Source of the DNA: Candidatus Margulisiibacteriota bacterium
GTDB lineage: Bacteria; Margulisbacteria; Marinamargulisbacteria; JBFWNS01
Reading direction: 5' to 3'
Assembly: GCA_050250935.1 (NCBI GenBank)
Contig: JBFWNS010000008.1
Span: 9,572 to 73,571, forward strand
Length of the DNA: 64,000 nt
Under the pieces are notes generated by a model, which was not told the origin of the DNA, ran no database searches, and saw nothing but the letters and a program-made list of their open reading frames with translations. A program made the position numbers and the translations under genes. This document shows, piece after piece, positions 5,089 to 58,387 of the stretch. Position 1 is the stretch's first letter, and every line of letters begins with the position of its first letter.

Positions 5089-5116
5089 TGCAATTTGAAG
5101 CCACATCTTCCGATAA
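5089..5116 (+). promoter_or_regulatory. sigma28-like promoter motif TGCAA-N17-CGATAA
   Basis: tgcaa 5089-5093, cgataa 5111-5116, upstream of the kinase gene. Confidence 0.7.
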
Positions 5117-5155
5117 CTAGTGGATGCCCAAGGGTATCGAAAAGGGGATATGATA

Positions 5156-6706
5156 ATGATGTTTAAGCATATTGCAGTGGTAAAACCACCCACAGATTTT
5201 TCGGGATTAATGGCCCTTTTTCCGCCAAAAAAAAATGGCGGTTCGGCTATTGGTTTTGGGTCCTTTTTACCACCGTCGGTGCCGGTTGTTCCTAGTCCCA
5301 CTTCGGTTTCAGCAGAACTTTCTATGTCTTCTCCAGATGCGTCGAGCTCGGAATCGAATATGGAAGAAGATCCGAAATCCGCGGTTTCGACGCACAGTTC
5401 TGTCCAGCCTTCTGACGACGATTCTTTGTTTAGGGCTTTTCTTGCCGCACCCACTGGGGATATGGGGATTCGTAAACGTACTGCATCTCAATTAGCCGGG
5501 CTTTACCCACCCTCTGCAAAACGGAATGAGCCTCAACTGAAGGCCGCTGGTTTCAATTTTTCTGAGATCGTACAGGCCGAACACCCCGCCATCTATCCAG
5601 ATATGCCAGAGGATCTCAACCCCTTTTTTGATTTTGGACCCGCAAGCCCAGTGCGTGGAGCAGATCTTTTGGCCATGTCTAAGTTGGAGCGTGTTCAGGT
5701 AACAGATGCCTCTGTTGAGTATTCTTTTTCTGGGAATATAAAGGTCTCGGTTGATCTGAAAAAACAGCTTGCAAATGGGGCTCATGGTGCTGTTTTTCCA
5801 GCCGCTGTTCGAAGTGGGGAAAAAGAATGGCAAACGGTTTACAAGCGGTATCGGCCAGGATACGAAAATACGATTTTTAACAGAATTTCGGCGGCGTTCG
5901 AGATCATAAAAAGGTTAAATCAAGGGGCCCCACATCCTAATATGGCTAAGCCGATATTTATGAACCATTTTGAGCTGGGCAAAAGGGTAGATTCGGTGGC
6001 CTATATTGAAGCCCAAACCGAATTTTCCAATATTAATGATGATGGGATCCATGCGGTGTTGAACATAAACCCAGCGGGAGGCACTGCACTTGTGTTCAAA
6101 TTGCTGGTTCAAATTTTAGAGCTAAATCGGTTTATGCACACCAACGGGTTTGTTCATGGCGATTTAAAAGGAGCCAACTTGTTGTTGGATAAAGCCAACA
6201 AGGCCCACCTTAAAGCCACTGATTTTGAATTTGCGCAACATTTAGGTAAGCAAGTGTTTGTAGAGACGACACCCGTTTATTGTGGTGAAAAACAACTGAG
6301 ACATTTAAGCGGAAATTATATCGTTGGGTCCGATGCCGATCTAAATGCTGTGGGATTAATGCTTTACAAATGGCTAGAGGGAAGCCATCTCTATGAATGT
6401 GTAAAAGTGATGGATAAAAGACTGTACACAAACCTGACTTTTTTGGCCCAGGTTATCGATGATCCTAGCTATACGGATGCAAAGCAAGCCTTGAGCCAGA
6501 AAGCTGGCCAAGACACGGTTTTGGCCCCCTTGTACCGAATAGCATTGGCCTTAATTGCTGCGGATGGAAAACCAGAAGAGACCCTATCGGTTTATCGGCT
6601 CGTGATGAACGAAATGGCAAAACACGTCGCGCGATATGCGGTTACTCCACTCCAGGTGGACCAGAGTGTGACCCAGTACATGGAACTGTGTAAAGTACAC
6701 GCCTAA
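5156..6706 (+). CDS. Hanks-type Ser/Thr protein kinase with long Ser/Pro-rich N-terminus
   Basis: LANGAHGAVF Gly loop, VYK, HGDLKGANLLL catalytic loop, TDFE (DFG variant); start among ATGs 5150-5159 after AAGGGG. Confidence 0.85.
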   Translation: MMFKHIAVVKPPTDFSGLMALFPPKKNGGSAIGFGSFLPPSVPVVPSPTSVSAELSMSSPDASSSESNMEEDPKSAVSTHSSVQPSDDDSLFRAFLAAPTGDMGIRKRTASQLAGLYPPSAKRNEPQLKAAGFNFSEIVQAEHPAIYPDMPEDLNPFFDFGPASPVRGADLLAMSKLERVQVTDASVEYSFSGNIKVSVDLKKQLANGAHGAVFPAAVRSGEKEWQTVYKRYRPGYENTIFNRISAAFEIIKRLNQGAPHPNMAKPIFMNHFELGKRVDSVAYIEAQTEFSNINDDGIHAVLNINPAGGTALVFKLLVQILELNRFMHTNGFVHGDLKGANLLLDKANKAHLKATDFEFAQHLGKQVFVETTPVYCGEKQLRHLSGNYIVGSDADLNAVGLMLYKWLEGSHLYECVKVMDKRLYTNLTFLAQVIDDPSYTDAKQALSQKAGQDTVLAPLYRIALALIAADGKPEETLSVYRLVMNEMAKHVARYAVTPLQVDQSVTQYMELCKVHA

Positions 6707-7310: not shown

Positions 7311-7694
7311 ATGAAAAAAAGCCTCCTGATGGGTGGCGCTTTGGTTGTTTTGGCTGTTGGGACCTATTGGGGTTTCCATACCCTTAAGCCTTCTGAACCC
7401 AAGCCTGTTGAACAACCTGCTGTAACCACCCAAATGGTTTGGAATGTTCCTTTGGAGTCTGAAGCCAAAGCCCAAAAGATTGAAAAAAAACTGGCCCAAA
7501 CCCCAGGTGTTGTGGCCGTTAAAACAACCGCCAAAACCGTCACCTGCGAATACGATCCCACCAAAGTCCAAGTGGCGGACATGGTGCAGACCATCGAAAA
7601 AGAAGGGGTAAAAGTCGAGTCTAAACCCTCGGCGCCACAGCCCCTGAATGTCATCAACTACAGCATCGATGTTCAACAAGGAGATCCAAAATGA
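7311..7694 (+). CDS. membrane-anchored HMA-like (heavy-metal-associated) domain protein lacking CXXC
   Basis: N-terminal TM helix; KIEKKLAQTPGV...EYDP...IEKEG HMA pattern. Confidence 0.65.
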   Translation: MKKSLLMGGALVVLAVGTYWGFHTLKPSEPKPVEQPAVTTQMVWNVPLESEAKAQKIEKKLAQTPGVVAVKTTAKTVTCEYDPTKVQVADMVQTIEKEGVKVESKPSAPQPLNVINYSIDVQQGDPK

Positions 7695-8200
7695 ACTTAA
7701 AAACAACCATTCTTGCCGCCGTGCTGATGGTTCCTGCAACGGTTTTTGCCGCTCCGATTGCTGGAGTCGCTGTTTTTTACCCCACATCCGGCAATGCGGT
7801 GTCTGGTGTTGTGCGCTTAAGCCAAACCCCAGACGGTGTTCGTTTGGTGGGGCAGGTGTCTGGGCTTACGCCGGGTAAGCATGGGTTTCATATCCATCAA
7901 TACGGCGACACATCGGCGTCAGATGGCACCGCCGCAGGGTCTCATTTTAACCCCTCTGGACACCAGCACGGGATGCCAGGGTCTGGCCACGTTGGCGATT
8001 TGATGAACATCGAAGCCAATGCGTCTGGAAATGCCACCCTCGATCGGACCCTGTCGGGCGCTACCCTGACCTCCGACGAAAACGGAATTTTAGGCCGTTC
8101 CTTGGTCATTCACGCCGACCAAGATGATTACAAAACACAGCCAACGGGCGGGTCTGGGGCCCGTGTTGCCGTTGGCGTTATAGGAGTTGCGAAGCCATGA
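7691..8200 (+). CDS. sodC: Cu/Zn superoxide dismutase, exported
   Basis: Signal peptide, HGFHIH, HFNP, HVGDL, SLVIH, GGSGAR. Confidence 0.95.
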   Translation: MNLKTTILAAVLMVPATVFAAPIAGVAVFYPTSGNAVSGVVRLSQTPDGVRLVGQVSGLTPGKHGFHIHQYGDTSASDGTAAGSHFNPSGHQHGMPGSGHVGDLMNIEANASGNATLDRTLSGATLTSDENGILGRSLVIHADQDDYKTQPTGGSGARVAVGVIGVAKP

Positions 8201-9141
8201 TGCAGGAGAATATGCGTTTTTTTGCGGGATCCTCTCACCCCGAATTGGGCAAAGCCATTGCCGATCAATTGGGCATTGAATTGGGAAAAATTCAGTTGTC
8301 TCGGTTTAGCTGTGGCGAATTGTATGCCCGCATCGAAGAATCCATTCGCGGCTACGAAGTGTATGTGCTTCAAACCGCAGCCCAAGAGGTTAACGACAAC
8401 TACATGGAACTCTTCATCATGATGGATGCATTAAAGCGCTCTTCTGCTGCCTCCATTAACGTGATTATTCCCCATTTTGGCTATGCCCGCCAAGACAAAA
8501 AATCGGCGCCCAGAGAGCCCATTTCGAGCCGTTTGATTGCCGATTTGATGTCCTCGGTTGGATTCGACCGCCTGATTACCATGGACTTGCATGCCGACCA
8601 AATTCAAGGATTTTTCTTGCAACCGGTGGATCATTTAACCGCCATGCCTTTGTTTGTGGAGTATTTTGCCAAAAAGAAACTTCAAAATTTGGTGGTTGTG
8701 GCTCCCGATGCTGGCCGGGCCAAATTTGCCAAAAAACTTTCCGACCATTTGGGCGGCGAATTGGCTTTTTTACACAAAACCCGTCCTGCCCACAATGTGG
8801 CCGAAATTGTGAATGTGGTGGGCAATGTCCAAGGCAAAACTGTGTTGTTGGTCGACGATATGGTCGACACCGGCGGTTCGGTGACTTCTGGCTTGGCCAC
8901 CTTGAAAAAATTTGGCTGCAACGACGAAATTTATTTGGCCACCACCCATCCCGTGTTGTCTGGCCCCGCCATTGAGCGGTTCTCCAAAGCCGGGTTTAAA
9001 GAAGTCGTGGTGACCGATACGATCCCGCTACCCAAAGAAAAACAGTTTCCAGGCTTAACGGTGTTGTCTGTAGCGCCCATGTTGGCCGAAGCCATTAAGC
9101 GCAACTACGAACATCAATCGATTTCGTCGTTGTATGTTTAA
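8197..9141 (+). CDS. prs: ribose-phosphate pyrophosphokinase
   Basis: GYARQDKK, DLHADQIQGFF, VDDMVDTGGS. Confidence 0.97.
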   Translation: MMQENMRFFAGSSHPELGKAIADQLGIELGKIQLSRFSCGELYARIEESIRGYEVYVLQTAAQEVNDNYMELFIMMDALKRSSAASINVIIPHFGYARQDKKSAPREPISSRLIADLMSSVGFDRLITMDLHADQIQGFFLQPVDHLTAMPLFVEYFAKKKLQNLVVVAPDAGRAKFAKKLSDHLGGELAFLHKTRPAHNVAEIVNVVGNVQGKTVLLVDDMVDTGGSVTSGLATLKKFGCNDEIYLATTHPVLSGPAIERFSKAGFKEVVVTDTIPLPKEKQFPGLTVLSVAPMLAEAIKRNYEHQSISSLYV

Positions 9142-10229
9142 GTTAAGGGGTTAAGGCGACCAAGTACCCAGTTTCGGGCGGCATCGAAGAGCGCAAAATA
9201 AATGCCATAACGACCTGATTTTACACCTACACCTGCAAAGACAGTTCGACGTACCCCATTAATCACTTGCAAGGGATTTTCGCTATGGGGGATTTCCCGA
9301 AGTGTTGAAACATAAGACGGTTTCCCAGATTGTATAGCGGTTACCAGCGCATCAAAGGGGGCCCCTGCAACAGCAGCGCCAAAACCAACCGTAGTTGCTG
9401 CGATAACGACAGACCCTGGGGTACCGAGTCCCCTTGGGATGCCATGATCTGAAAACCAATGATTTAGTGCACGTTGGGCATCACCATAAAGGGCAAAAAG
9501 GCCAGCCCCAAAAATGGCAGCCCGAGCAGCAGCAGGCGCCACGGAAGGTAAGATATTCTGTCTAAAAACCGTATAAGAAATAGTGTCAGAACGTCCCGTT
9601 TGGACAGCCCGATTTATAAATTCCAAAGGGGTTACGAGTGCGTCTACAAGCCCACTAGCAGCAGCAGAGGCCCAGAGTTTCGCCTTTTTTTCTGGAACCC
9701 CCTTTTGTACAAGATAAGAAACCGACAGGTCAACCGCGATCACTTTAAGTGTTCTTCGCGGAATGTCTTGGCCAAACCCGGCAACCATGCCCTTGCAAAA
9801 TGTGTTATAAAGTGCGGCCTTCAGACCTCGGGTCTGATGCATTTTTTGGTCGTAAAGGGCTTGCCAGATACCCAACTGAGGGTTTTCTTGTAGTCGAAAT
9901 TTTGCGCCATTGGCCCAATGGGTGGCTGCGCTTGCAGCAATAGAGCCCGCAGCTCCTGAAACCATGGCTTTGAATGCAATGGCTGAGGCGCTGGTATTGG
10001 CAGCTGAGACCACTGTTGGATGAAATGAAATAGCCTGGTTGGCTTGATGCGCTAAGCCAGCCGGAAACCCCAGTGTTATCGAAGGATTGGAGAGAGTCGC
10101 CGAAGCCGCAACGAGTGCTTCTTTAGAAGAGGTAGTAAAAGTAGACTTTGAGGCGGGATGGGATTCAGGACTATTTTGAACAGAACGTGCAGGAACTTGA
10201 GTAGTGGGCGGTGCGGGAGAAACAGACAT
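9138..10229 (-). CDS. mitochondrial carrier family (SLC25)-like protein with Ser/Pro/Thr-rich N-terminal extension
   Basis: Three repeats with degenerate PX[DE]XX[KR]X[KR] signatures (HWANGAKFRLQ, TPLEFINRAVQ, APFDALVTAIQ); GGAG RBS before ATG 10229. Confidence 0.75.
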   Translation of the reverse strand: MSVSPAPPTTQVPARSVQNSPESHPASKSTFTTSSKEALVAASATLSNPSITLGFPAGLAHQANQAISFHPTVVSAANTSASAIAFKAMVSGAAGSIAASAATHWANGAKFRLQENPQLGIWQALYDQKMHQTRGLKAALYNTFCKGMVAGFGQDIPRRTLKVIAVDLSVSYLVQKGVPEKKAKLWASAAASGLVDALVTPLEFINRAVQTGRSDTISYTVFRQNILPSVAPAAARAAIFGAGLFALYGDAQRALNHWFSDHGIPRGLGTPGSVVIAATTVGFGAAVAGAPFDALVTAIQSGKPSYVSTLREIPHSENPLQVINGVRRTVFAGVGVKSGRYGIYFALFDAARNWVLGRLNPLT

Positions 10230-10259
10230 AACCACTCCTGAATAGTATAGATTTCATAA

Positions 10260-10287
10260 TTATCGAGCAGAGGAGGGGTTTATTGCA
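10260..10287 (-). promoter_or_regulatory. sigma28-like promoter motif TGCAA-N17-CGATAA
   Basis: plus strand ttatcg 10260-10265 and ttgca 10283-10287. Confidence 0.7.
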
Positions 10288-10292
10288 AAAAT

Positions 10293-11327
10293 TTAAATGC
10301 TATAGTCGCCAAACAAAACTTGGTCGTGCTTGGGGCTTACAAACACAGTGTCGCCTTTTTGAAACTGTTCTACCCGATAGATTTCTTGGGACAGGTCTAC
10401 CGTGATGGGGGTGTTGTTTTGGCCGACCAATTCCACACGAACCAAAGGCCCCACGGTGTTGAGCTGAACAATGGTGGCCGATAGGGCATTGTCTTGTGTG
10501 GCGGATCGGTTGAGTTGGAGTTCGTGGGGACGTACATAAAAGGGTTTTTCAGAGGCGTCAAAAGAAAGCACAGGAGAGCCGTTTTCGATGCGGCCATAAA
10601 ACAAATTAACACTGCCGATAAACTGATACACAAAGGGGTTCGCAGGTTTTTGATAGACGGCTTCGGGGGTTCCAATTTGTTCGATTTTGCCATGATTCAT
10701 CACCACAATACGGTCGGCTACTTCCAGGGCTTCTTCCACATCGTGGGTCACAAAGACGCTGGTAATGTGCAATTCGTTGTGCAATTGCCGAAGCCAGCTG
10801 CGCAATTCTTTGCGAACGTTGGCATCCAAGGCCCCAAAGGGTTCGTCCAACAACAAGACTTGGGGCTCGATGGCAATGGCCCGGGCCAAGGCCACCCGCT
10901 GCCGTTGTCCGCCCGACAGTTGGCTGGGGTACCGATCCCCCAACTTTTCGAGTTGAACTAGCTTTAACAGTTCATCAACCCGCTTTGCAATTTCGGCTTT
11001 GCTGGGGCGGGTGGATCGGGGGCGAACCGAGAGGCCAAAGCCAATGTTTTCGGCCACCGTCATGTGGCGAAACAGGGCGTAATGTTGAAACACAAAGCCC
11101 ACTTGGCGTTCCCGAACTGCTTTGTCTTGAATGTTCTGACCATTGAATAAAATTTGCCCAGAATCCAGGGTTTCAAGACCAGCAATCAACCGCAATAAGG
11201 TTGTTTTGCCCGATCCCGAAGGGCCCAAAAGGGCCACCAATTCGCCACTTTTAATAGCCAGATTGATGGAATACAGCGCCGGAAAATCCCCATACTGTTT
11301 TTCGACGTTTTGAATGACAATGCTCAT
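10293..11327 (-). CDS. cysA: sulfate ABC transporter ATP-binding protein
   Basis: [31 protein letters not shown]-like tail. Confidence 0.95.
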
Positions 11328-41141: not shown

Positions 41142-44100
41142 TTACCGACGTTCGACCCAACCCCATGCTTCTTCTCGTCCACCGTCGCCTGGATAGACAT
41201 AGCCGGTCACTCCCCAATAATATTGTCTTCCTGAATGATCGCAAAGGTTTCGATCTAATCCCTCCCGATCGAAGCCTCTCGAATTAAATCCGCTTGTATC
41301 GTATCCCTCCCGATCAACCCCGTCCTTATCGAAACCATCAGGGTTATATCTAGTTCTCGTTTCAAAATGGATTCCAGCTTTATTAAACCCATTTCGGTTG
41401 TAGCCCCTTCGATTATATCGATTGTCGTCATATCCGGCTCGGTTATATCCCCAACGATCATATCCCCTCGCATCTAATCCAGTTAGGTCATATCCCCAAC
41501 GGTTATACCCATCAATATGAAATCCATCTCTGTTATATCCTGCACGGTTGTACCCATTCCAACTGTAAGCTAAAGGGCTGTGACTACAAAAAATGTCTAA
41601 GTATTCACGAGAACGTCCGTGCCTATCGCGTCCGTTTCGATTAAACCCTTCTTTATCGTACCCCAAATAACTATAGCCATCTTTATTAAACCCGTTTCTG
41701 TCCAGTCCCATGAGATTAAATCCGCTAGTTCGATGGAATCCCTGGCTATCTAACCCATCCAAATCATATCCAGTTCGATCAAATCCTTCTCGGTTGCGGC
41801 CGCTTCTATTATAGCCGTCTTTATCAAGCCCCTCTTTGTTGTAGCCATCTCTATTAAATCCCTCAGGATTATATTGGGTGTGTGTATCTCGATGAAACCC
41901 ATCCCGATTAAATCCGCTTAATCGTGAGTACCCGTTGTGATCATATGTCGTTGCAAGTTCAAATGCCCTTTTATGCGCTTGCGGATTGGTTTGGGACGCA
42001 ACAAGAGAAACTGTCTTAAGAATAGGATGAGCACGATGGGGCCAAAGTTTTATAAAGTAAGTGACGCTGTCCAATTCGCACACAAGAAGTTCAGCACAGA
42101 TCGCATCGATAAATGCGCGCCTTTGGCCGGACATTAATATCGACAAAAACGAGGGAAGCACCGGTAAAACATGCAGTGGGCCTAGGGGAACCTTACGGCG
42201 TACGATCTCTTCCACAGCATCATCGACCGGAAGCCATTGATCTAGCGAACATCCGTAACAAATGGCGCGAAAAACCGCAAAAGCAGAATTTGTGGGACCC
42301 TTTTGCATGTTAAAGGCAATTAAGGTGCTGCTGTTATGGGCAATGGTTTCAAATAGTAACGCTGCAAAGCGTCGGCTGTGGGAATCGGGGAAATGGCGTG
42401 CCCAGCTGGCCCAAGGCTCATCAACCTTCAAGGGTTCATTTCCGATTTGTTGGGGGAATTTTGCCTTGCCTAACCGCTCCGGAGGATACCAAAATGTCGC
42501 GAATTTAAGACGCATTACCTCACGTAAGATGGCCAGAGGAACTGTTTCTTTGATTTGGAACAACCGGCGGGTCAACTGAATTTGAACCAATTCGGCCCAA
42601 GATGCATCCGGAATCTCTTGCGAAAGATCTGAACACTCACTTACAAATTGCTTAGCGTGCTGATTAGATCCAAACCATTCAAGTGCTTTGGTCATCGTAT
42701 CTAAGAATTCGAGCGGAGTGGCACCGCGTATGTTGAGCGCTTTACGTGACGCATCTGATTTCTCTAATACAGTAGCAAGTACACCACAAGCGAGCCTTGG
42801 AGGAGAAAGCTTTGGGGTATCAACCCTTGAAGCAGTGGGGCTACTGTCTTTTTCGGTCATCTGTGCCAACAACCGCGTAGACCCATCGCGATCCCATGCC
42901 CGATAAAAATACGCAGAAAACTCAGGCGATAGCCCCACCTGGTGCTGAATCAAAAAGTCGGCCATGCTTTCCATCGTATCCGTCGTTGGGGCAGCTGAAT
43001 CCATGGACCGAAGCACAACTAAATCCAAAAGATTGAGCCCATCGTCAAATCCTGCCGTAGGTGATATTTTTCCCTCGGTTAAGCACCTAGCTGCGTGTTC
43101 AACATCGCCATTGACCAACAATTGAAAAAAACCTTTTAGCGCTTCTGAACTCGTCGGCGGTACTTCGCCCTTAACCAGAGAATCGGTATAGGTTTGGGCT
43201 ACCTCAGCATGTGGGTGTTCCGTATCCGGGACAAGTTTGATGGTAACAAAATCGATTGGACGGCTCCATCCACCCTGGTGAATTAAAAATTGGATCATCT
43301 GTGCAATCTCTCCACATTGCGGACGGAACTCATGCGACAGAATGGGGATTTGTAGCAACAGGTTTAGTAACATCTTGGGAAGCGAAGTCCCTTTCATTCT
43401 TTCACCAAAGAGCGGGATGATGCGTCTTGCTTGACCCAGAATGACCAGCCAGTCAACAGATTCGGCGGCTGCTTTGTCGAAGTGTAGCAACGCATATTTT
43501 TCAATCACCATGTGGGAAATCATGTAATCAGACGAGGTGTCGTTTTTAATCAAGACTTCTAGGATTGCATGCCGTTCTTCACCAGATAAAAATGCGTCAA
43601 AATCCCTTGAGTCAAAAAAGGTTCTGCACCAAGCCTGAAACTTTTCGTCTTTGAGTATCAAGGGACCGTATACCTGAAGGGTTTGAACAACAGCGTTAAC
43701 CAACCCTTTATCCGGAGAAGTATATTCTGCAGAGTATTCCGCGAAAGGAGAAGGGACTAATACTTCCAATTGCCGAATGGCCTTTTCGACAAGGCGATCT
43801 TTTTCGCCCGCCATGAGTTCGAGCCACCTTGTACGAAAAGCTGCTGCTTGAGGATGATTATGACGCAACAGGGTGTAGCAACTACGTTCAAAACTTTCCA
43901 TCCCAATTGAAAGAACACGACTACCATGGAATCCCATTAAGTCCGTGAGGCGGTTAAGTGCCAGGGTCAGTCGATCATCTCCATGTTGCCCCGAGATTTC
44001 CCAAGGAAGGTTTTCTTCTAAATCGCGGATATAAACTTCGGTCAATTGACTGTCATCGCCTTCTAAACAAATGTCCAAGAAACGAGACTGATAATGGGCA

Positions 44101-45575
44101 TGGTCTGCAATCGAAAACATGCCGACTGTGGGAGGCGGCTGTAGACGTCCGCCATGCTTAACCAAGTGTTCTAAGTGGGCTAGCAAATCTACACTATGCC
44201 CTGGAATAAGATATGGTCTTAGCTGCTTTAAAGTCGTGTCAGTTAACCGTTGAACATAGTCAGCGCTGTGAATGGGCTTTCGAATTGCGCAGTACCATGC
44301 ATAGGCTTTTGGGTTCAAAAACATGTGGTCGGCCAGCGTAAAACCGTCTTGGGTAACGTAGCTGTCAGGTAAGCCCAACGACACAATTAAAAATTTGATT
44401 CCGGGTTTCTGACCTGTTACGCAAGGAGCTACCTCCCCATCGTCGAACTTGGCACCCCTGGCGTGGGCCTGTTTCACAAGTTCTGCCAATTCGGACTGTC
44501 CTTTGACCAGTTTGCGATTGTTGAAAAGCCAGGTCATTAGGTTAAAGCTGGTGCTTTGGGGAAGCGCACCCATTTTAAGCAGGTCAGTGATACGGTTTAG
44601 TTTTTGATTGGTTGGCAAATTCCCAGCGCAGGCGTCCACAAGCCGTTGCGTCAATAAGGCTTCCAATGTGGTTACAGACGCCAAATCATTTTTGGCCACC
44701 AACAATTGCCGCGCCGTTTGCCCAGCATGATTGGGCAAATCCAAGCTAGACTCGGTGGCCACTAATTGTTTTAGGGCAAAGTCACGATCGTGAATAATCG
44801 CTAAATGCAGGGGGGTATTGCCGGCTGAATTGGCAAGACCTATCAGTGATGGTTCTGCCTTTAAAATTTCTTGGAAGCAGCGTTGAGCACCCGACACAAC
44901 CGCATGATGAAGCAAAGAATTGCCCGAGGAATCAACCCATTGCCCGAACCTAGTAGGTGTTGGCACGCCCAGACGGGGCCTTAGAATTGCATTCAATCCA
45001 GCTAGTTGATCGTTCGCAACGCAATGAAAAGCCCATCGCTTGCTAAGTGTTTGACTCGGCAAAAATCGAAATTTGCAAGTCAGATCAAACGCAAATTGAT
45101 CCGTTGATGCTAGCAAAACCGTCATTACCCCATCAACGGATTGGGCATTAACATTGGGTAAAACAGCCTGAGGCGAGATTTGGCAAACCTTCAAAAATAA
45201 AGTGGGGTTTTGGACACAAAAAAGAGGGCTCAAAGGGTCATAAATAAGTGCTGGCCACCGCTGATGAATGGAAAAATAAACAGCTTCTTGCTTCGTACCT
45301 TTGTTTCGTTGAAAATAATCGTGCATAATTTTGGCAACAACAACCTGCCCACAGGCTTGTCGATACCGTTGTTGCATGCTACCAAGTTTATTGACGATCG
45401 CAGTCAGTGCAGCATCCACGGACTGGCCTCCCAAGGAATCCAGCCATTTGTTATAGACGGCTATCTCTTTAGCAGACAAAGAGGTCCCCATGGCTTTCTT
45501 CCTGAGAATCTCAGTGGTATAAATTTTAAAAACATTAACATGGTAACCGATAGATACAGCCGGTAATGAAATCAT
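41142..45575 (-). CDS. large ankyrin-repeat protein with C-terminal GY[DN]xxG repeat region
   Basis: GNSLLHHAV, GNTPLHLAI, GQTARQL; about 230 aa of (Y/F)(D/N)xxG repeats. Confidence 0.85.
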   Translation of the reverse strand: MISLPAVSIGYHVNVFKIYTTEILRKKAMGTSLSAKEIAVYNKWLDSLGGQSVDAALTAIVNKLGSMQQRYRQACGQVVVAKIMHDYFQRNKGTKQEAVYFSIHQRWPALIYDPLSPLFCVQNPTLFLKVCQISPQAVLPNVNAQSVDGVMTVLLASTDQFAFDLTCKFRFLPSQTLSKRWAFHCVANDQLAGLNAILRPRLGVPTPTRFGQWVDSSGNSLLHHAVVSGAQRCFQEILKAEPSLIGLANSAGNTPLHLAIIHDRDFALKQLVATESSLDLPNHAGQTARQLLVAKNDLASVTTLEALLTQRLVDACAGNLPTNQKLNRITDLLKMGALPQSTSFNLMTWLFNNRKLVKGQSELAELVKQAHARGAKFDDGEVAPCVTGQKPGIKFLIVSLGLPDSYVTQDGFTLADHMFLNPKAYAWYCAIRKPIHSADYVQRLTDTTLKQLRPYLIPGHSVDLLAHLEHLVKHGGRLQPPPTVGMFSIADHAHYQSRFLDICLEGDDSQLTEVYIRDLEENLPWEISGQHGDDRLTLALNRLTDLMGFHGSRVLSIGMESFERSCYTLLRHNHPQAAAFRTRWLELMAGEKDRLVEKAIRQLEVLVPSPFAEYSAEYTSPDKGLVNAVVQTLQVYGPLILKDEKFQAWCRTFFDSRDFDAFLSGEERHAILEVLIKNDTSSDYMISHMVIEKYALLHFDKAAAESVDWLVILGQARRIIPLFGERMKGTSLPKMLLNLLLQIPILSHEFRPQCGEIAQMIQFLIHQGGWSRPIDFVTIKLVPDTEHPHAEVAQTYTDSLVKGEVPPTSSEALKGFFQLLVNGDVEHAARCLTEGKISPTAGFDDGLNLLDLVVLRSMDSAAPTTDTMESMADFLIQHQVGLSPEFSAYFYRAWDRDGSTRLLAQMTEKDSSPTASRVDTPKLSPPRLACGVLATVLEKSDASRKALNIRGATPLEFLDTMTKALEWFGSNQHAKQFVSECSDLSQEIPDASWAELVQIQLTRRLFQIKETVPLAILREVMRLKFATFWYPPERLGKAKFPQQIGNEPLKVDEPWASWARHFPDSHSRRFAALLFETIAHNSSTLIAFNMQKGPTNSAFAVFRAICYGCSLDQWLPVDDAVEEIVRRKVPLGPLHVLPVLPSFLSILMSGQRRAFIDAICAELLVCELDSVTYFIKLWPHRAHPILKTVSLVASQTNPQAHKRAFELATTYDHNGYSRLSGFNRDGFHRDTHTQYNPEGFNRDGYNKEGLDKDGYNRSGRNREGFDRTGYDLDGLDSQGFHRTSGFNLMGLDRNGFNKDGYSYLGYDKEGFNRNGRDRHGRSREYLDIFCSHSPLAYSWNGYNRAGYNRDGFHIDGYNRWGYDLTGLDARGYDRWGYNRAGYDDNRYNRRGYNRNGFNKAGIHFETRTRYNPDGFDKDGVDREGYDTSGFNSRGFDREGLDRNLCDHSGRQYYWGVTGYVYPGDGGREEAWGWVERR

Positions 45576-46071
45576 CAAAAATAAATATACTCAAAAAATT
45601 GAAAATGTAAATATGTTCTGGATCTATGTGGCCTTACCTCGTTGGATACGGCAAAAATAAGGCATCAAAGTCCAGACCGATCGAATTGGGTTGATGCATG
45701 ATGTATAAAATATGGTGTTGCTCTGGTTTTAATTTATGAAGATTGGTTTCCAAATTTGCCTGAAAAATGGACAAAGCTTGGCGACTTGGAATTGCTGAGG
45801 CCTAGGGTATCCCCAGCAGGTAGCCGAGTTTCTTTTTTTGTAGCAATTCCAGAAGCAACGGCTGCCCTAGATAAATTTATAAAAACGATTGAACTTCATG
45901 AGGTTGAGCCCCTTTTCGATTCAAGATAAAAATAATTGAAAAAATTAAATAGATACCACCTTCGCTTGTATTTGTTTTACGGCCGCGAATTGTACCGAAC
46001 CATCTGCCGTTCCGCCCAACCTGGGGGCACAGCGGGGTATAACAAAAGTTTAAATTCGAACTTTGTTTTTT

Positions 46072-48340: not shown

Positions 48341-51300
48341 CTACAACCACGCCAGCGCGGCTGCTAAATCATCTGGGTCTATGCCTGAAAAATCTTTCAG
48401 GTCTGTGCCCAGTGTGGTTTGAAGGTTGCTCAGAAGGCGGTGTAAAAGCTGCCGCGTTTTGATGATATTTGCATCCAAAGCTGTAAGAATGGCGGTGCGG
48501 CCTTCGGGCCTAAAGTTTGAGGTGGTCGTGGCCGGGTCTAGGTGGTACTCAATGTTACCAAGACAGGCTAAAAAACGTCGGTAGCGTGGGGCATCGTCGG
48601 TGGTTACGAAAATTGTATGGAAAAAATTCAGATGCTTCGATAGAGAATCATAGGCGTGTGTGTGAAAAATATCAAAGGCCATAACCAACCTGCGTTGAAA
48701 GGCGGTGGATTCGTTCATGGGGTGCGGTGCGGTTGTGGCCATGCACTTAAGCGAAAAAATATCATAGGCAAGCTCTGACATCAGGTCCCCAAACTCAATG
48801 TGGGAGGGGAAACGAGCGGGGTCTAATCCACAGTGTTGGATGATTTGCTTAGGGCCATCCGGTAGGTGTCGACGGAGTTTTTGTGTGTGCACATGTTGCG
48901 CCTGATTGAAGCCCGCCAACAGAGGAGTAAAGTCGACCCCTTGTGCCAAGCGAGCGTGGAGCTCCGTTAAAAATTGGTCTAAAATGATCGGGAAGCCAGC
49001 GGTCTCACAAAAGATGCCGTATTCTTGTTCATAAAAGAAGGCACATTGAATGTTCAGTAACTGAAGCATCCAGTCTGCGGTTTTATGGCTTGGGATGGCA
49101 CAAAATTTTTGAAGTTCGGTGCCGACTTGCAGTGGTCGTAATATTTCTGGGCCCAGAGTGGAACTTCTTCTGGCCGCTTGTTGCAACCGTTCTGGTGAGG
49201 TGCCGTAACAATCCCGCACAAGAATTTTGCGTGTGTCGTGTACGGGTCGCCGCTCTGAGGTGGTCATGGCTTGTCTGATAAGCAGGGAGTGTTCGGAATC
49301 TGCTGGAAAGGGGCTCAAAACACAGTGGGGCGTTGTGCCATTACGGACTACCATGGGTAAAGGGACACCCGACCAGCGGTGGGTTAAGCCGGTTAGAATC
49401 GGGGTTAACCGCCGAATGGCTTCATCTCTGAGACCCTGTGGAGAGTCGGCAATGGCCAAATACAAGAAGTGGCTTAACTGTCTAAAGTCCACACCCGATC
49501 GAAGTTCAGAGGCAATGCCCACAAATTCAGCCGCCTGGTCCGGGTTGCGTAATGGTTTTACTCGTTTTGCAATGTCTGGGTAGTGCATCGTTTCTCCCCA
49601 AGACAGTATCGGTGTAACGGGCCTTGAAGGGGGTTGGGCAGGGATGCTCATGGGTTGAGGTTCGGTAAAGATAATTTTTGCGACCACATCGGCAAGCCAA
49701 GCGTGATCGGTCAGAAAAAGCCGCTCGCCCCGATACTGGGTCACATACAGTAGAAGATCGTCCAAAGAATGAATGAACGCAGAAAAATCAACAAAATTAA
49801 ACTGTTCGGGTTCGGCGTGGCTTAGCAACAACCGTAAAACAACGTGGGTATAGCCCTGAAGAGCGTATCCGACGCCCACTTGTTTAAGAACTTCTCCCTC
49901 AAAATTAGACGAAAAGCATAGGTTCATTTGGGCGACGCAGCGCATGGCCAAGTTAGTGTAATCGGGTGAACTGGCGGCAATGACCGTCACAGGGAGCATC
50001 AACTTGAGGGTGTCGAGTGTCGCTGGTAGGGTGGGGGATTGCAAGCAGGTATTCCAGTGGTCCAGCCATTTTCGGGCCAGCAACGGCCGGTCTAGCAGGA
50101 CGGGAAAAACGGCTTGGTGCTGGTCTAAGTGGAGTGCGTCATGGAACCCTTGCAGGTCAACTGTTGGACCCATAAGGGTCAGTCTAAGTTCAAAATAAAC
50201 CGGCCAATGCGGATGGTTGGGTTGAAGGTCCATCATCGGGGGTGTGGTGTACAAAAGGGGTGGGATCACCGTAGTGGCGACGGCACAGCTTTTGAGCTCA
50301 AATAGATCATCCAGCCAACGTTGGCAGGTTTGTTCGGTGGTACAGGTGTGGCCCAGCCGAAGCCGCATGACTTGATGTCCGATCTGAGCCTTGTCGAGGC
50401 TGAACAGCGTATGTGCCAAGTCGTTAAACGGCTCGGGGGTTGAAAATTTTTCAATAAACCGCGTGATAACCCGCATCAAAAAAGCAACTGATTTATTGGA
50501 TCGGGCCGCCAATGCCGACATAACCCAGTCTCTAAATCCTACCGGGTTAAGCCTGGCATACCGTTCTGCCAGTTCGGGATAATCCAAAATTTGGGCTGTT
50601 TTGGCTGCGGCTGCTTTTTCTAAGATAGGGGCAAAGTTCGAGTCGGGTAAATCGGCAGGTAGGCTTAACAGGTCGTTAAAAATGTCCTCCCAATTGGGAT
50701 TTCGAAGGTCCACTCTGGTTTGCAATCGATCCCAAAACGTGGGGGCATCCACCCGTGCAGGGTTGTCTGGTGCATTGGCTTGCGTGTGGGTGGGTGCTGC
50801 GCTGGGTTGAGCCTGTGTGCGTGCAGGCCATTGGGACAACAATCGTGAAAGCGGTTCTGTTAAAAAAGCTTGGTGAGCCTCGTCGTTATGCTCGCTGGGT
50901 TTGGGGAATTCTACGGGCAAAAGGAGGGTAGGGAGGTCGGGATTTTTGGGCTTGAAGGCATAAAGACGGCATTCTCCTTCGGTTTTGTTTTGAAAGGAAA
51001 CGCGCTGAAGCTGTCCGTGTGGGGGTAATGCATGAGAGGTGGGATAAGGCTGCCATTCTCGGTCCACCGCAATTTTAAGTAAGATCAAGTCGTTTACACA
51101 AACGGGGCTGCCGGGTGCTAGGTCTAATAACTGAACCTTATAATGGGTACAAACGGCCTCATAAACTTTTTGAATGGTGGCTGCATCCAACTTAGCAACC
51201 GCTGCTTCGAGACTGGCTCGACCCAGGTTTTTCCAGGCGACAATAAAAGGGCTCAGATCTGCTGGTGCTGCCACCAATTTCCCGGCTTCTTTTAAAAAAT

Positions 51301-51400
51301 TTTCAACCTGATCTTTGTTACGCTTGATAAGCCGGTTGGCCAAGGTCGTGGCCTGTTGTTGGCTAAGGCCAAAAGGTGGTGCTGCAAGTTGTTTTTTCAT
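48341..51400 (-). CDS. large orphan hypothetical protein (about 1019 aa)
   Basis: Long ORF; ATG at 51400 (MKKQL) lies downstream of the promoter motif. Confidence 0.8.
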   Translation of the reverse strand: MKKQLAAPPFGLSQQQATTLANRLIKRNKDQVENFLKEAGKLVAAPADLSPFIVAWKNLGRASLEAAVAKLDAATIQKVYEAVCTHYKVQLLDLAPGSPVCVNDLILLKIAVDREWQPYPTSHALPPHGQLQRVSFQNKTEGECRLYAFKPKNPDLPTLLLPVEFPKPSEHNDEAHQAFLTEPLSRLLSQWPARTQAQPSAAPTHTQANAPDNPARVDAPTFWDRLQTRVDLRNPNWEDIFNDLLSLPADLPDSNFAPILEKAAAAKTAQILDYPELAERYARLNPVGFRDWVMSALAARSNKSVAFLMRVITRFIEKFSTPEPFNDLAHTLFSLDKAQIGHQVMRLRLGHTCTTEQTCQRWLDDLFELKSCAVATTVIPPLLYTTPPMMDLQPNHPHWPVYFELRLTLMGPTVDLQGFHDALHLDQHQAVFPVLLDRPLLARKWLDHWNTCLQSPTLPATLDTLKLMLPVTVIAASSPDYTNLAMRCVAQMNLCFSSNFEGEVLKQVGVGYALQGYTHVVLRLLLSHAEPEQFNFVDFSAFIHSLDDLLLYVTQYRGERLFLTDHAWLADVVAKIIFTEPQPMSIPAQPPSRPVTPILSWGETMHYPDIAKRVKPLRNPDQAAEFVGIASELRSGVDFRQLSHFLYLAIADSPQGLRDEAIRRLTPILTGLTHRWSGVPLPMVVRNGTTPHCVLSPFPADSEHSLLIRQAMTTSERRPVHDTRKILVRDCYGTSPERLQQAARRSSTLGPEILRPLQVGTELQKFCAIPSHKTADWMLQLLNIQCAFFYEQEYGIFCETAGFPIILDQFLTELHARLAQGVDFTPLLAGFNQAQHVHTQKLRRHLPDGPKQIIQHCGLDPARFPSHIEFGDLMSELAYDIFSLKCMATTAPHPMNESTAFQRRLVMAFDIFHTHAYDSLSKHLNFFHTIFVTTDDAPRYRRFLACLGNIEYHLDPATTTSNFRPEGRTAILTALDANIIKTRQLLHRLLSNLQTTLGTDLKDFSGIDPDDLAAALAWL

Positions 51401-51431
51401 AAATACCCTAATGGTCCTTTTTTGTAGAGAA

Positions 51432-51460
51432 TTATCGGCTCTATAATGCAAATAATTGCA
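51432..51460 (-). promoter_or_regulatory. sigma28-like promoter TGCAA-N16-GCCGATAA
   Basis: plus strand ttatcggc 51432-51439 and ttgca 51456-51460. Confidence 0.65.
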
Positions 51461-51464
51461 ATAT

Positions 51465-52478
51465 TTAGACAGCTTCGGGCACGTGGGGATTCGGTTTGAA
51501 CAGGTTGGGGGGATATATGTCACGTGTCGATACATGTCTGGTTTCTTTTATCCGGTCTCCTTCTCGGTAAAATCCGACGGGCCCCCAGTATTGGGTTGTT
51601 GTGTCCCACGCCCTACCAAACCCATTCTCTACAAAATGCTCTGATTCGTTATTGTAACCTTCTGTCTGTAGAAGCCCAAAATAACTTGAATATACCATCT
51701 CTCGGGCATTGAAAATGCACGCAGTTTTCGATTCTCTCAGAACGTAAGTATTGAATATCTGCGCTTGTTCTGACATCAGCGATGTATCAAAAGTGATCAT
51801 GTGACTGCTGTTCCGATTCGGCTTGATCGAAGGACCCTTATCCCAAGTTTCGAAGTAAGGCTCTCCACCGATCCTTCTTTCTATCATTCCAAACATCCAA
51901 AGTCCTTCGTTAATGTCATGAAAATGTCGCTGATACACCAGAGGACCAATTCGAAGTGCCATTTGCCAATGTGAGTTCTTCAAGGTTCCAAATCCAAATC
52001 CAAAGTCCAACTTTGGATGTTTTGCATCTTCATTCAGTAGAACAGAAGTTACTTCATCAAATTGAATTTTTGTAAGGTGACGTAGTGTCAGGCGAAGAAT
52101 CCTGGGATCAATTCGATATTCTGGCTTTTCGTGGTTACAAACGTGATTGATCACTTTGTCTTCGACACAAATTCTCCGCCACGCCTCTGCCCCATCTGCC
52201 TCTGGCGCATTGACGAGCGGAAACCCGAATATTGCGGGGGGAGAATTCAGTTTTAGATCGTGTCGTTCGATCAAGTTTGCAAAGCAATGCTCTCTATCCT
52301 GCCAATAGTGCACCGCCATTTCAGAATAGTTGCAAAACTCTTGAAATGATCCATAGAAAGACCTGCTTACTGTGGATAACCGAAGAAGGTCCGGCGTTGG
52401 CAACTGTCCCATTACCATTTCCTTTATCTCTTGAGGTAGCTGGGAAAAGTAGGCTATGTGTTTGTGTAGCGTTTTCAT
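51465..52478 (-). CDS. F-box domain protein
   Basis: FSQLPQEIKEMVMGQLPTPDLLRLSTVSRSFY matches the F-box consensus; GGAG RBS. Confidence 0.85.
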   Translation of the reverse strand: MKTLHKHIAYFSQLPQEIKEMVMGQLPTPDLLRLSTVSRSFYGSFQEFCNYSEMAVHYWQDREHCFANLIERHDLKLNSPPAIFGFPLVNAPEADGAEAWRRICVEDKVINHVCNHEKPEYRIDPRILRLTLRHLTKIQFDEVTSVLLNEDAKHPKLDFGFGFGTLKNSHWQMALRIGPLVYQRHFHDINEGLWMFGMIERRIGGEPYFETWDKGPSIKPNRNSSHMITFDTSLMSEQAQIFNTYVLRESKTACIFNAREMVYSSYFGLLQTEGYNNESEHFVENGFGRAWDTTTQYWGPVGFYREGDRIKETRHVSTRDIYPPNLFKPNPHVPEAV

Positions 52479-52522
52479 TTATCTCCGCCTTGGATTCAGG
52501 GATTGGCGCACTTCTATTTAGT

Positions 52523-52550
52523 TTATCGTATTGGATTTTGGTTTATTGCA
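52523..52550 (-). promoter_or_regulatory. sigma28-like promoter motif TGCAA-N17-CGATAA
   Basis: plus strand ttatcg 52523-52528 and ttgca 52546-52550. Confidence 0.7.
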
Positions 52551-56998: not shown

Positions 56999-57784
56999 GT
57001 GGCTGAACTGTTGGTGGGGTTTTTTAAAGGCAAGCAAGATCCCCGCGTGGTCGTGGATGGGGGAGGGGTGTGGAAGGGAAAAACCAGAATCACCCAAGTC
57101 TCGACACCGGTTGAAGCCCAAGAAACACTGACGGTGTTTGTTTCCGCCTCCCCACAACAGCAATTTATATTAGACCCCAGCCAAATTATTTTGGAGCACG
57201 CAGATTGGGTGGTGGTGAACAAGCCTGCTGCATTGGCCACGGTTAGCGATCACGCCAATTTACATTGGAATTTAACGGCAGGGGTTTGGGCCTATCTGCA
57301 GGCTAAAGGAAGTCGGTATCAGCCCACCGCCATTAATCGGTTGGATATTGGGGTTTCGGGGCTGGTGTTGTTTCCCAAGCACAAAGCCGCCGAAAAAAAA
57401 CTCTTTGCCCTGATGCAAGCGCGAAAGATCGCGAAGCGGTACACCGCTATTTTAGGGCCTCATGTCCCTCGACCTTGGGTGAGGATCTCGAATTACCTTT
57501 TGTTTACAAAAAAAGCCCAGATCAGCGAGAGCCCTGCAGGTAAATTGGCTCAGTCCGTATTTGTATGGCAGAAAACTGTAGCGGAAGGCGAGGTTTATCG
57601 GGTGGTTATTCGGACGGGGAGAAGACATCAAATTCGGGTCCATGCGGCCCATCATTTGGCCCCTATTGTGGGGGATACCTTGTACGGCTCACCTGCAATC
57701 TGTGGAAAAACGCTTTGCCTAGTGGCCGACTACTTAAAGTTTTGGTGGCGGAATGTTCAATACAAAATTCAGTTACCCGAATAA
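56999..57784 (+). CDS. RluA family pseudouridine synthase
   Basis: VNKPA, NRLD, TGRRHQIRVH, PIVGD.LYG; true start may be slightly upstream. Confidence 0.9.
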   Translation: MAELLVGFFKGKQDPRVVVDGGGVWKGKTRITQVSTPVEAQETLTVFVSASPQQQFILDPSQIILEHADWVVVNKPAALATVSDHANLHWNLTAGVWAYLQAKGSRYQPTAINRLDIGVSGLVLFPKHKAAEKKLFALMQARKIAKRYTAILGPHVPRPWVRISNYLLFTKKAQISESPAGKLAQSVFVWQKTVAEGEVYRVVIRTGRRHQIRVHAAHHLAPIVGDTLYGSPAICGKTLCLVADYLKFWWRNVQYKIQLPE

Positions 57785-58387
57785 TTTGTTGCTTGGCGTT
57801 GAAGGGGAGCGCCGTTTAAGGATCAATGCCGCTCTATCCCCCAAAGACAGGTGGGAGAAGCTTTCGCAGGTGTCTTCGGTTATGTGGAAGGCACAGCGAA
57901 GGTCTGGATGCCCGTACAGCATGGTTTTGAATTCATTTCGCTCACAACGGTCAAAAAATGTAACCAAAATAACAGGGGCAGAGTGAACGTCAGGCTTAAA
58001 AAACCGAAGTAAATTGACCATGATATCTGCCCAATTTTTAGGACACCTGTCGATATTGGGGTGTTCAATCAAGATGCAGGCTGGGGTATAGTCGGCGTTC
58101 CAGATGGAGGCATCGCAACACTGAAACAAAAATTGTTTTGCGACGTCTCTCAAAGAATCTGGGAAAGGAATAACTTGATCTACTTCGTCGACCCCAACAT
58201 AAAGAACAGATGGAAAGCGCTTAATTACAGTTATAAAATCCCGAGCTTGCCCACATCCGATGCTGACAACCATCGCAACACAGTCATGGGGAATGTGGAT
58301 ATGGCGTTCCAAATAAGTATCCAAAGCACTGGTGGGGGGTAACGGGGAAAGCGGAGGCTTGGCGGAGACAACTTTATGAGAAAACAT
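57773..58387 (-). CDS. class I SAM-methyltransferase-like orphan with Pro/Ser-rich N-terminus
   Basis: VVSIGCGQ motif I, YVGVD motif II. Confidence 0.6.
   Translation of the reverse strand: MFSHKVVSAKPPLSPLPPTSALDTYLERHIHIPHDCVAMVVSIGCGQARDFITVIKRFPSVLYVGVDEVDQVIPFPDSLRDVAKQFLFQCCDASIWNADYTPACILIEHPNIDRCPKNWADIMVNLLRFFKPDVHSAPVILVTFFDRCERNEFKTMLYGHPDLRCAFHITEDTCESFSHLSLGDRAALILKRRSPSTPSNKLFG

Follow-up and report, generated by a model that had tools for sequence, protein, structure and literature searches.

A mitochondrial-carrier (SLC25) gene in a margulisbacterial genome, co-regulated with eukaryote-like genes: a candidate effector directed at host mitochondria

The mitochondrial carrier family (SLC25) is essentially eukaryotic (PMC13385207), with bacterial members already known from Legionella, Neorickettsia and Babela. 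A gene of this family was identified in a stretch of 64,000 nucleotides (hereafter referred to as the window) of contig JBFWNS010000008.1, from the metagenome-assembled genome GCA_050250935.1 of a Candidatus Margulisiibacteriota bacterium, probably of the class Marinamargulisbacteria. Its product belongs to SLC25, judging from its repeats, its modelled fold and its putative binding site. The gene, chromosomal, strongly diverged and likely taken from a eukaryote, lies behind a promoter that it shares with other carrier genes and with eukaryote-like signalling genes. The tentative reading favoured here, to which we would give slightly less than an even chance, is that it encodes an effector exported by the flagellar apparatus and acting in host mitochondria as a weakly gated carboxylate carrier. 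The main interest lies in the class-wide carrier set and its candidate export route rather than in the single gene.

The gene is an intact open reading frame (ORF) without introns, reading from an ATG at 10229 to 9138 on the minus strand (Table 1). Mito_carr (PF00153) is the sole Pfam family match of the protein at E<=5 (E=1e-6; 28.8 bits, with the cut-off at 22.3) and covers three stretches, corresponding to three homologous repeats of about 100 residues each. The tripartite carrier repeat described in the original prediction, which was made from the sequence alone and proposed this Pfam search, is thus confirmed, and the three second-half motifs quoted there were located, starting at residues 144, 233 and 330. 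Mito_carr was also carried by all 30 feature matches of the protein in the ESM Atlas, whose own structural model of it compares with SLC25 models at template modelling (TM) scores of 0.65-0.73. The Pfam and Atlas results are less circular evidence than the fold matches based on AlphaFold2 (AF2); the AF2 model of the core (mean predicted local distance difference test, pLDDT, 87; predicted TM score 0.82; six confident helices) was built on an alignment of the protein with 23 carriers of the same class, a carrier-only input that favours a carrier fold. In the structural searches, which the original prediction had also proposed, all of the 12 top-listed Foldseek rows from the Protein Data Bank (PDB) were SLC25 proteins (UCP1, E=3.5e-6, TM 0.69), and VIA-align gave Z-scores of 14.2-21.7 for SLC25 entries against 6.4 for the next unrelated fold, the best SLC25 match having a root-mean-square deviation of 3.2 over 258 residues. 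The predicted models, of the AF2 core and of the Atlas alike, thus have the six-helix, three-fold pseudo-symmetric fold of a carrier. Sequence searches retrieved only the protein itself from a database of 5.8 billion proteins, from 1.84 billion representatives and, by tblastn and phmmer, from its own genome, and no relative among the PDB sequences.

Eukaryotic contamination or misassembly is an explanation suggested by the essentially eukaryotic distribution of the family (PMC13385207) and by the metagenomic assembly of the genome (1.95 Mb, 95.85% complete, 0.16% contaminated). However, a separately assembled contig of 8,070 bases from a landfill metagenome run (depth 19.7) spans positions 8200-10911 without mismatch or gap and joins prs, the carrier gene and most of cysA; this run may be the source sample, which would make the contig a re-assembly rather than an independent sample. 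Parts of the gene are covered, without differences, in a second DNA run. The carrier stop shares 4 nt with that of the convergent prs gene, the absence of introns is accompanied by a bacterial promoter and ribosome-binding site, the contamination value of the genome is low, and such genes occur in 29 of the 55 genomes of the class. Contamination is refuted as far as assemblies can show and is barely credible, and the bacterial location claimed for the gene stands.

The residues of the gates and of the central site bear on whether and how the protein would transport. The matrix signature Px[DE]xx[KR]xxxQ is complete in none of the three repeats, which read W105-x-N107-xx-K110-xxx-Q114, P201-x-E203-xx-N206-xxx-Q210 and P291-x-D293-xx-V296-xxx-Q300; two of three prolines, three of six charges and all three glutamines are kept, in agreement with the partial loss of salt-bridge charges noted originally. 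With the acids of helices H1, H3 and H5 paired with the bases of H3, H5 and H1, respectively (PMC9104175), one of three matrix salt bridges is left (D293-K110, with the Q114 brace), N107 and N206 both being neutral and E203 standing opposite V296. The cytoplasmic gate motif [YF][DE]xx[KR], checked on H2, H4 and H6, is complete on H6 only. Degenerate signatures occur in accepted SLC25 members and a weak salt-bridge network permits uniport; loss of gate charges is also typical of the non-classical MTCH and SLC25A46 proteins (PMC7611774).

The predicted central site has three contact points, all with basic residues (R158/R159/K162, R236 and, at point III, R340). When aligned by hhalign (probability 87.7, E=3.4e-6) with the environmental carriers P0007 and P0009, D155, P157, R158, R159 and K162 of contact point I correspond to E, P, K, R and K, R236 of point II to R, and K337 and R340 of point III to K and R. 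P0007 was the best phmmer match among the 29 carriers compared (22% identity). We take the motif of these two proteins to be that of the oxodicarboxylate carrier (ODC/SLC25A21). In comparison with this type, contact points I and III match, contact point II reads R-A against R-H, and the tree does not decide the relationship. Residues at contact point II distinguish nucleotide (G[IVLM]), amino-acid (R[DE]) and carboxylate (R[QHNT]) carriers (PMC13385207); the nucleotide class was ruled out by the arginine, and the amino-acid class was rejected on the R-A reading.

With about 20% overall identity, the protein has retained a basic residue at each contact point and the glutamine of each Q brace. 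This argues against a reading in which it is a secreted effector without transport activity, the carrier fold serving as a scaffold or decoy at the mitochondrion in the manner of MTCH2, SLC25A46 or Lpg1137, e.g. by jamming carrier import or by binding a host protein. Working carriers tolerate a missing bridge (PMC9104175), although one is lacking there, not two. The scaffold reading draws on the pattern of lost gate charges and mostly kept prolines, which is that of MTCH and SLC25A46 (PMC7611774), on the tryptophan in place of the H1 proline, on the absence of a homologue among the 5.8 billion and 1.84 billion proteins searched, and on Lpg1137, a diverged bacterial SLC25 homologue tied to the cleavage of syntaxin-17 (PMC5621508); it is considered unlikely. 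The suggestion that the protein may be a leaky or dominant-negative carrier is consistent, in its first half, with retained binding residues and weak gates, and found no support here in its second.

The carrier core is preceded by a leader in which nearly all residues from 2 to 68 have a pLDDT below 50 in the full-length AF2 model, a low confidence partly expected where few or no aligned sequences cover the region. Of residues 2-30, 55% are serine, threonine or proline, which is the 99.7th percentile among 1,397 genes, and a hydrophobic signal segment is absent (0.48). The disorder originally described for a leader of about 80 residues is thus retained, with a length nearer 70. The lack of a signal peptide also weighs on a further explanation, that the protein works in the inner membrane of the bacterium itself, importing host metabolites: in the carrier topology, the polar tail of 70 residues would have to cross that membrane unaided, and with two bridges lost the membrane would be at risk of leaking. 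The Babela genome paper nevertheless counts mitochondrial carriers among nutrient transporters (PMC4378268), the first segment of the paralogues C3 and C4b is of moderate hydrophobicity (mean hydropathy over 12 residues, 1.7-1.8), and a search for the TLC ATP/ADP translocase was blank, with an uninformative control. Co-regulation with F-box, Myb and kinase genes, as described below, and the occurrence of six dissimilar copies at unrelated loci, with no orthologue or conservation of position, are difficult to reconcile with such a role, which is likewise judged to be unlikely.

The shared promoter claimed for the gene was found as a sigma-28-type site ahead of it, one of 51 in the genome. The motif occurs 36 and 15 times at spacers of 17 and 18 nt, respectively, against 1-8 times at each of ten other spacers, and needs the CG dinucleotide (45 sites, with no more than 8 for any of the 15 other dinucleotides). 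While about 70% of the genome lies deep inside genes, 46 of the 51 sites are outside gene bodies. The spacing fits the E. coli sigma-28 consensus, and CGATwt is the -10 box of Campylobacter sigma-28 (PMC4626219). A sigma-70 reading was rejected: it gave one weak site, at chance level, the motif depends on CG, and boxes of the TATAAT type have no peak at any spacer. The sigma factor acting at the carrier promoter is a matter that we infer. Among the 43 genes downstream of these sites, 24 have no Pfam family, seven belong to other families and 12 are carriers or eukaryote-like signalling genes, namely four carriers, two Ser/Thr kinases, two PP2C-like proteins (one under the cut-off) and an ADP-ribosyltransferase, a Myb, an F-box and a MORN protein. 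The promoter precedes four of the six carriers, as compared with 43 of the 1,738 genes of a rough gene call (p about 5e-6), and the carrier-promoter link is strong in this genome. The promoter itself occurs class-wide, 39 of the 55 genomes having at least 20 sites (reversed control, 1-12).

Several observations were made on the proteins of this regulon. The ADP-ribosyltransferase-domain protein (L180, G000:C2:9743-11089) and the Myb-repeat protein (L183, C3:6514-7428), both behind the promoter, are likely host-directed. In the window, a cluster on the minus strand comprises a 1,478-aa ankyrin protein (41142-45578), a 1,019-aa orphan (48341-51535) and an F-box protein (51465-52478), the latter two behind a sigma-28-type promoter. 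A motif of the type K/H-[HKQL]-[ILVF]-[ASV] stands within the first few residues in 12 of the 43 promoter-linked genes against 50 of the 1,738 called genes, a contrast that is partly circular, the motif having been drawn from the promoter-linked genes themselves. Three genes of the window carry it (5150-6703 on the plus strand; 51468-52478 and 57776-58387 on the minus strand), and in seven motif genes the start lies 5-14 nt beyond the -10 box, as it would in leaderless transcripts. It is a candidate export signal or translation signal. The first nine residues of a carrier (G000:C3:137795-138946) and of an orphan (G000:C7:6102-6989), both under the promoter, are nearly the same and resemble a mitochondrial presequence, and N-terminal segments may possibly be exchanged between effector genes.

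A candidate route of export is provided by flagellar genes. FliM, FliN, FliP, FliR, FlhB and FlhA, followed by a FliA-like sigma factor, were found along with FliK, rod proteins, FlgA/H/I (P and L rings), FliF and MotA/B, and the identity of FlhA as flagellar FlhA is backed by an Atlas search. These clusters lie at G000:C5:118-128 kb, C1:313-325 kb and C2:21.7-23.3 kb, and FliG is short (215 aa). The genome has no flagellin and no true FlgK, for which only a weak cross-match to a rod gene was obtained. In the class, FlhA is present in 49 and flagellin in one of 55 genomes; the corresponding figures for the phylum are 135 and 15 of 146. The sole flagellin match of the class (L133, G003:C64), located on a short contig in a genome that is fragmented and not enriched in the promoter, may be a binning stray. 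As for other systems, one secretin is present, the VirB4, VirD4 and type VI secretion sheath families gave no match in this 95.85% complete genome, and a search for DotI was blank, its control being silent too. A route of the Dot/Icm type, as used by LncP, is therefore excluded as far as searched, VirB4 and VirD4 being without a match. Among the systems found, the flagellar gate would be the only one able to move a signal-peptide-free protein in one step; it occurs together with a sigma-28-type promoter and a disordered N-terminus lacking a signal peptide.

In the favoured reading, the carrier gene would be switched on with a late sigma-28-type regulon, and the unfolded protein would be exported by the flagellin-less flagellar type III apparatus by means of its disordered leader and delivered into a eukaryotic host, probably a protist. 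It would then follow the host pathway of carrier import into the mitochondrial inner membrane, as LncP does (PMC3252375). There, the arginine-rich site would bind an anionic metabolite, most likely keto or dicarboxylic acids, and the weak gates would allow the carrier to cycle without a counter-substrate instead of by strict exchange. As a result, matrix metabolites might be drained towards the bacterium or host metabolism disturbed. All the steps after transcription, i.e. export, host entry, import and substrate, are those that we infer. An intracellular Marinamargulisbacterium lives in Trichoplax (PMC6784892), and the effector claim of the original prediction draws circumstantial support from the co-regulation with eukaryote-like genes, the flagellin-less type III apparatus and the restriction of the carriers to the class.

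Several observations weigh against this reading. On the side of the export route, FlhA is phylum-wide and thus does not track the carriers, the flagellar gate being older and wider than they are; two sigma-70-family factors lie in the flagellar clusters (one after flhA on C5, the other in the rod cluster on C1), none of the flagellar structural genes could clearly be placed behind the promoter and no translocon was identified in the genome, and, according to PMC5223770, how a flagellum might deliver proteins into a host has not been described. The regulon includes LepA among its seven other families (probably by chance), and about five of its proteins look Sec-exported when judged by eye. In the relatives, the carriers of G029, G034 and G040 are nearly leaderless, and the exact promoter lies near only one of 27 carrier frames, so that the carrier-promoter link is not general. 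Many biosynthetic genes are kept in the genome, unlike in a reduced parasite. With respect to the substrate, P0007 did not rank first in a shuffle-normalised comparison, the carrier protein is unplaced in the tree, and R-A lies outside the R[QHNT] of carboxylate carriers (PMC13385207), as it does outside every listed class pattern; carboxylate is therefore the likeliest substrate class from the residues, not a result.

The gene might alternatively be a decaying relic of gene transfer without current function. Its sequence is a singleton, its codon use is atypical (3.7th percentile; GC content at third codon positions, GC3, 0.38 against 0.52) and the carrier matches of some relatives contain stops. 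However, the other five carriers (4.8th-18th percentile) and the regulon genes (median 12th) are atypical as well, and the full open frame, the ribosome-binding site, the regulon promoter, the six confident helices and the selective retention of binding-site residues make decay quite improbable.

The occurrence of carriers in the genome and in the class was also examined. Pfam identified five carrier genes in the genome, of which three pass the cut-off with single stretches; a sixth (C2:235883-236830, E=4.6e-7), without a Pfam match, was added by a profile built from class carriers. Five of them, compared by BLAST, are barely alignable (best E=0.002), and four of the carriers other than the present one are surrounded by unrelated genes of bacterial type, among them mutS, queC, gshB and a recombinase gene. 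Carriers were detected by Pfam in 24 of the 55 class genomes (nine of the 18 high-quality ones) and by the class-carrier profile in 29, and by neither in the 91 other genomes of the phylum. One carrier, of G005, matches the yeast GTP/GDP carrier Ggc1 with E=3e-50, other PDB carriers giving 4e-9 or weaker, and is by sequence a clear orthologue of it; it falls (L012) in a supported group of three class carriers with L121 (G043) and L014 (G003). The carrier of one other relative is closest to proteins with a motif that is presumably of the ODC type. Because of this orthology and this likeness, the sequences suggest that class carriers were captured more than once. A quick tree of 20 rows, with six non-class references and with 11 of the 31 rows left out, mostly those on long branches, did not reject a single origin (approximately unbiased test, p-AU 0.123). 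Carrier genes still seem to be arising and decaying: two of them stand in tandem at G008:C2:11648-13461, one of the two matches containing a stop, and the frames on C247 and C53 of G023 are fragmentary.

A more far-reaching proposal, which is doubtful, is that the class has turned a flagellin-less flagellum into an injectisome, independent of the classical one, that delivers a repeatedly acquired and fast-evolving kit of mitochondrial carriers to eukaryotic hosts. With similar reserve, the kit might be taken to comprise GTP/GDP-carrier-like, oxodicarboxylate-like and other members, up to about six per genome, among which the present gene would be a deliberately leaky one.

Of the known bacterial systems, LncP of Legionella pneumophila is a proven effector that enters host mitochondria, a substrate of the Dot/Icm type IV system and an ATP/GTP carrier for which uniport is possible (PMC3252375). 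Both it and the present protein are bacterially encoded six-helix SLC25 proteins, but here VirB4 and VirD4 were not found, a flagellar type III system is the candidate route, arginine at contact point II stands in place of the glycine typical of nucleotide carriers, the signature has degenerated further and the genome has about six unrelated carriers. The carrier would thus work like LncP, if the proposed pathway holds, without being an LncP-type Dot/Icm effector. Lpg1137 of Legionella, also an effector, is similarly a bacterial homologue of SLC25 that has diverged very far and shows up chiefly in profile or structure comparisons (PMC5621508), whereas the carrier here passes the Pfam cut-off and keeps its basic contact points; both comparisons are with the published descriptions of the Legionella proteins. 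Eukaryotic SLC25 proteins (UCP1, 8hbv; the Tetrahymena 2-oxoglutarate/malate carrier-type subunit, 7w5z_M2; ADP/ATP carriers) share the fold (Z 14-22), the three repeats, the Q braces and the basic contact points, and differ in having two or three matrix salt bridges against one here and in the H1 proline lost here; the present gene is bacterial, with a sigma-28-type promoter and a 70-aa Ser/Thr/Pro leader. In Campylobacter, the sigma-28-dependent Feds, CiaI and FspA are secreted through the flagellum (PMC5223770). Non-flagellar genes under a CGATA-type promoter are common to both, with flagellar type III export there and as the candidate route here, but Campylobacter has a motile filament, whereas flagellin is absent here and the regulon, of about 45 genes, codes for orphan proteins and proteins of eukaryote-like type. 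Neorickettsia sennetsu and Babela massiliensis also are eukaryote-associated bacteria with carrier genes; they belong to other phyla, and the accessible parts of their reports mention no class-wide expansion.

The aquatic bacteria of this class are known almost only from metagenomes. The presence of carriers in about half of its genomes, up to about six in each, and in none of the 91 others of the phylum is genomic evidence of life with eukaryotes that reaches into the mitochondria. In the Margulisbacteria literature, nothing was found that joins the lineage with mitochondrial carriers, subscription journals and supplements being outside the scope and annotation tables there being places where such genes could be listed. 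The carriers offer a candidate cargo, open to experiment, for a flagellar machine without flagellin that is so far unexplained, and their naturally weak gates could be used to test how SLC25 gates set exchange versus leak.

Table 1. Positions in the window of the carrier gene, its signals and predicted helices, its flanking genes and co-regulated candidates
Feature	Position	Strand	Evidence or remark
SLC25 (mitochondrial carrier family) gene, intact, 363 aa	9138..10229	-	ORF, Pfam, ESM Atlas, AF2, Foldseek, VIA-align
Sigma-28-type promoter TGCAA-17 nt-CGATAA, ahead of carrier	10260..10287	-	One of 51 genome sites
Shine-Dalgarno AGGAG, 5 nt ahead of carrier ATG	10235..10239	-	
Leader, about 70 aa, Ser/Thr/Pro-rich, low-confidence, no signal peptide; putative type III export signal	10020..10229	-	
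H1 signature, degenerate: W105 for Pro, N107 for acid, K110 and Q114 kept	9888..9920	-	
H2 with contact point I region: D155, P157, R158, R159, K162	9744..9800	-	
H3 signature: P201, E203, N206 for base, Q210	9600..9632	-	
H4 with contact point II: R236-A237	9486..9545	-	
H5 signature: P291, D293, V296 for base, Q300	9330..9362	-	
H6: contact point III (K337, R340) and start of the sole complete cytoplasmic-gate motif, F348-D349, R352	9183..9242	-	
prs (ribose-phosphate pyrophosphokinase), bacterial housekeeping flank, convergent with carrier	8197..9141	+	
cysA-like ATP-binding cassette (ABC) ATPase, last gene of sulfate-ABC-type operon, same-strand upstream flank	10293..11327	-	
Promoter then Ser/Thr kinase gene, co-regulated candidate effector	5089..6706	+	
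Promoter then F-box protein gene, co-regulated candidate effector	51465..52550	-	

The flanks of the carrier gene are bacterial genes on both sides. The gap between the cysA-like gene and the carrier is 63 nt, and the sulfate label of the operon is based on gene order and a weak CysA_C match. Directly 5' of prs (7311-8200, plus strand) lie genes for a small heavy-metal-associated-domain protein and a Cu/Zn superoxide-dismutase-like protein, as read by eye from the translation.

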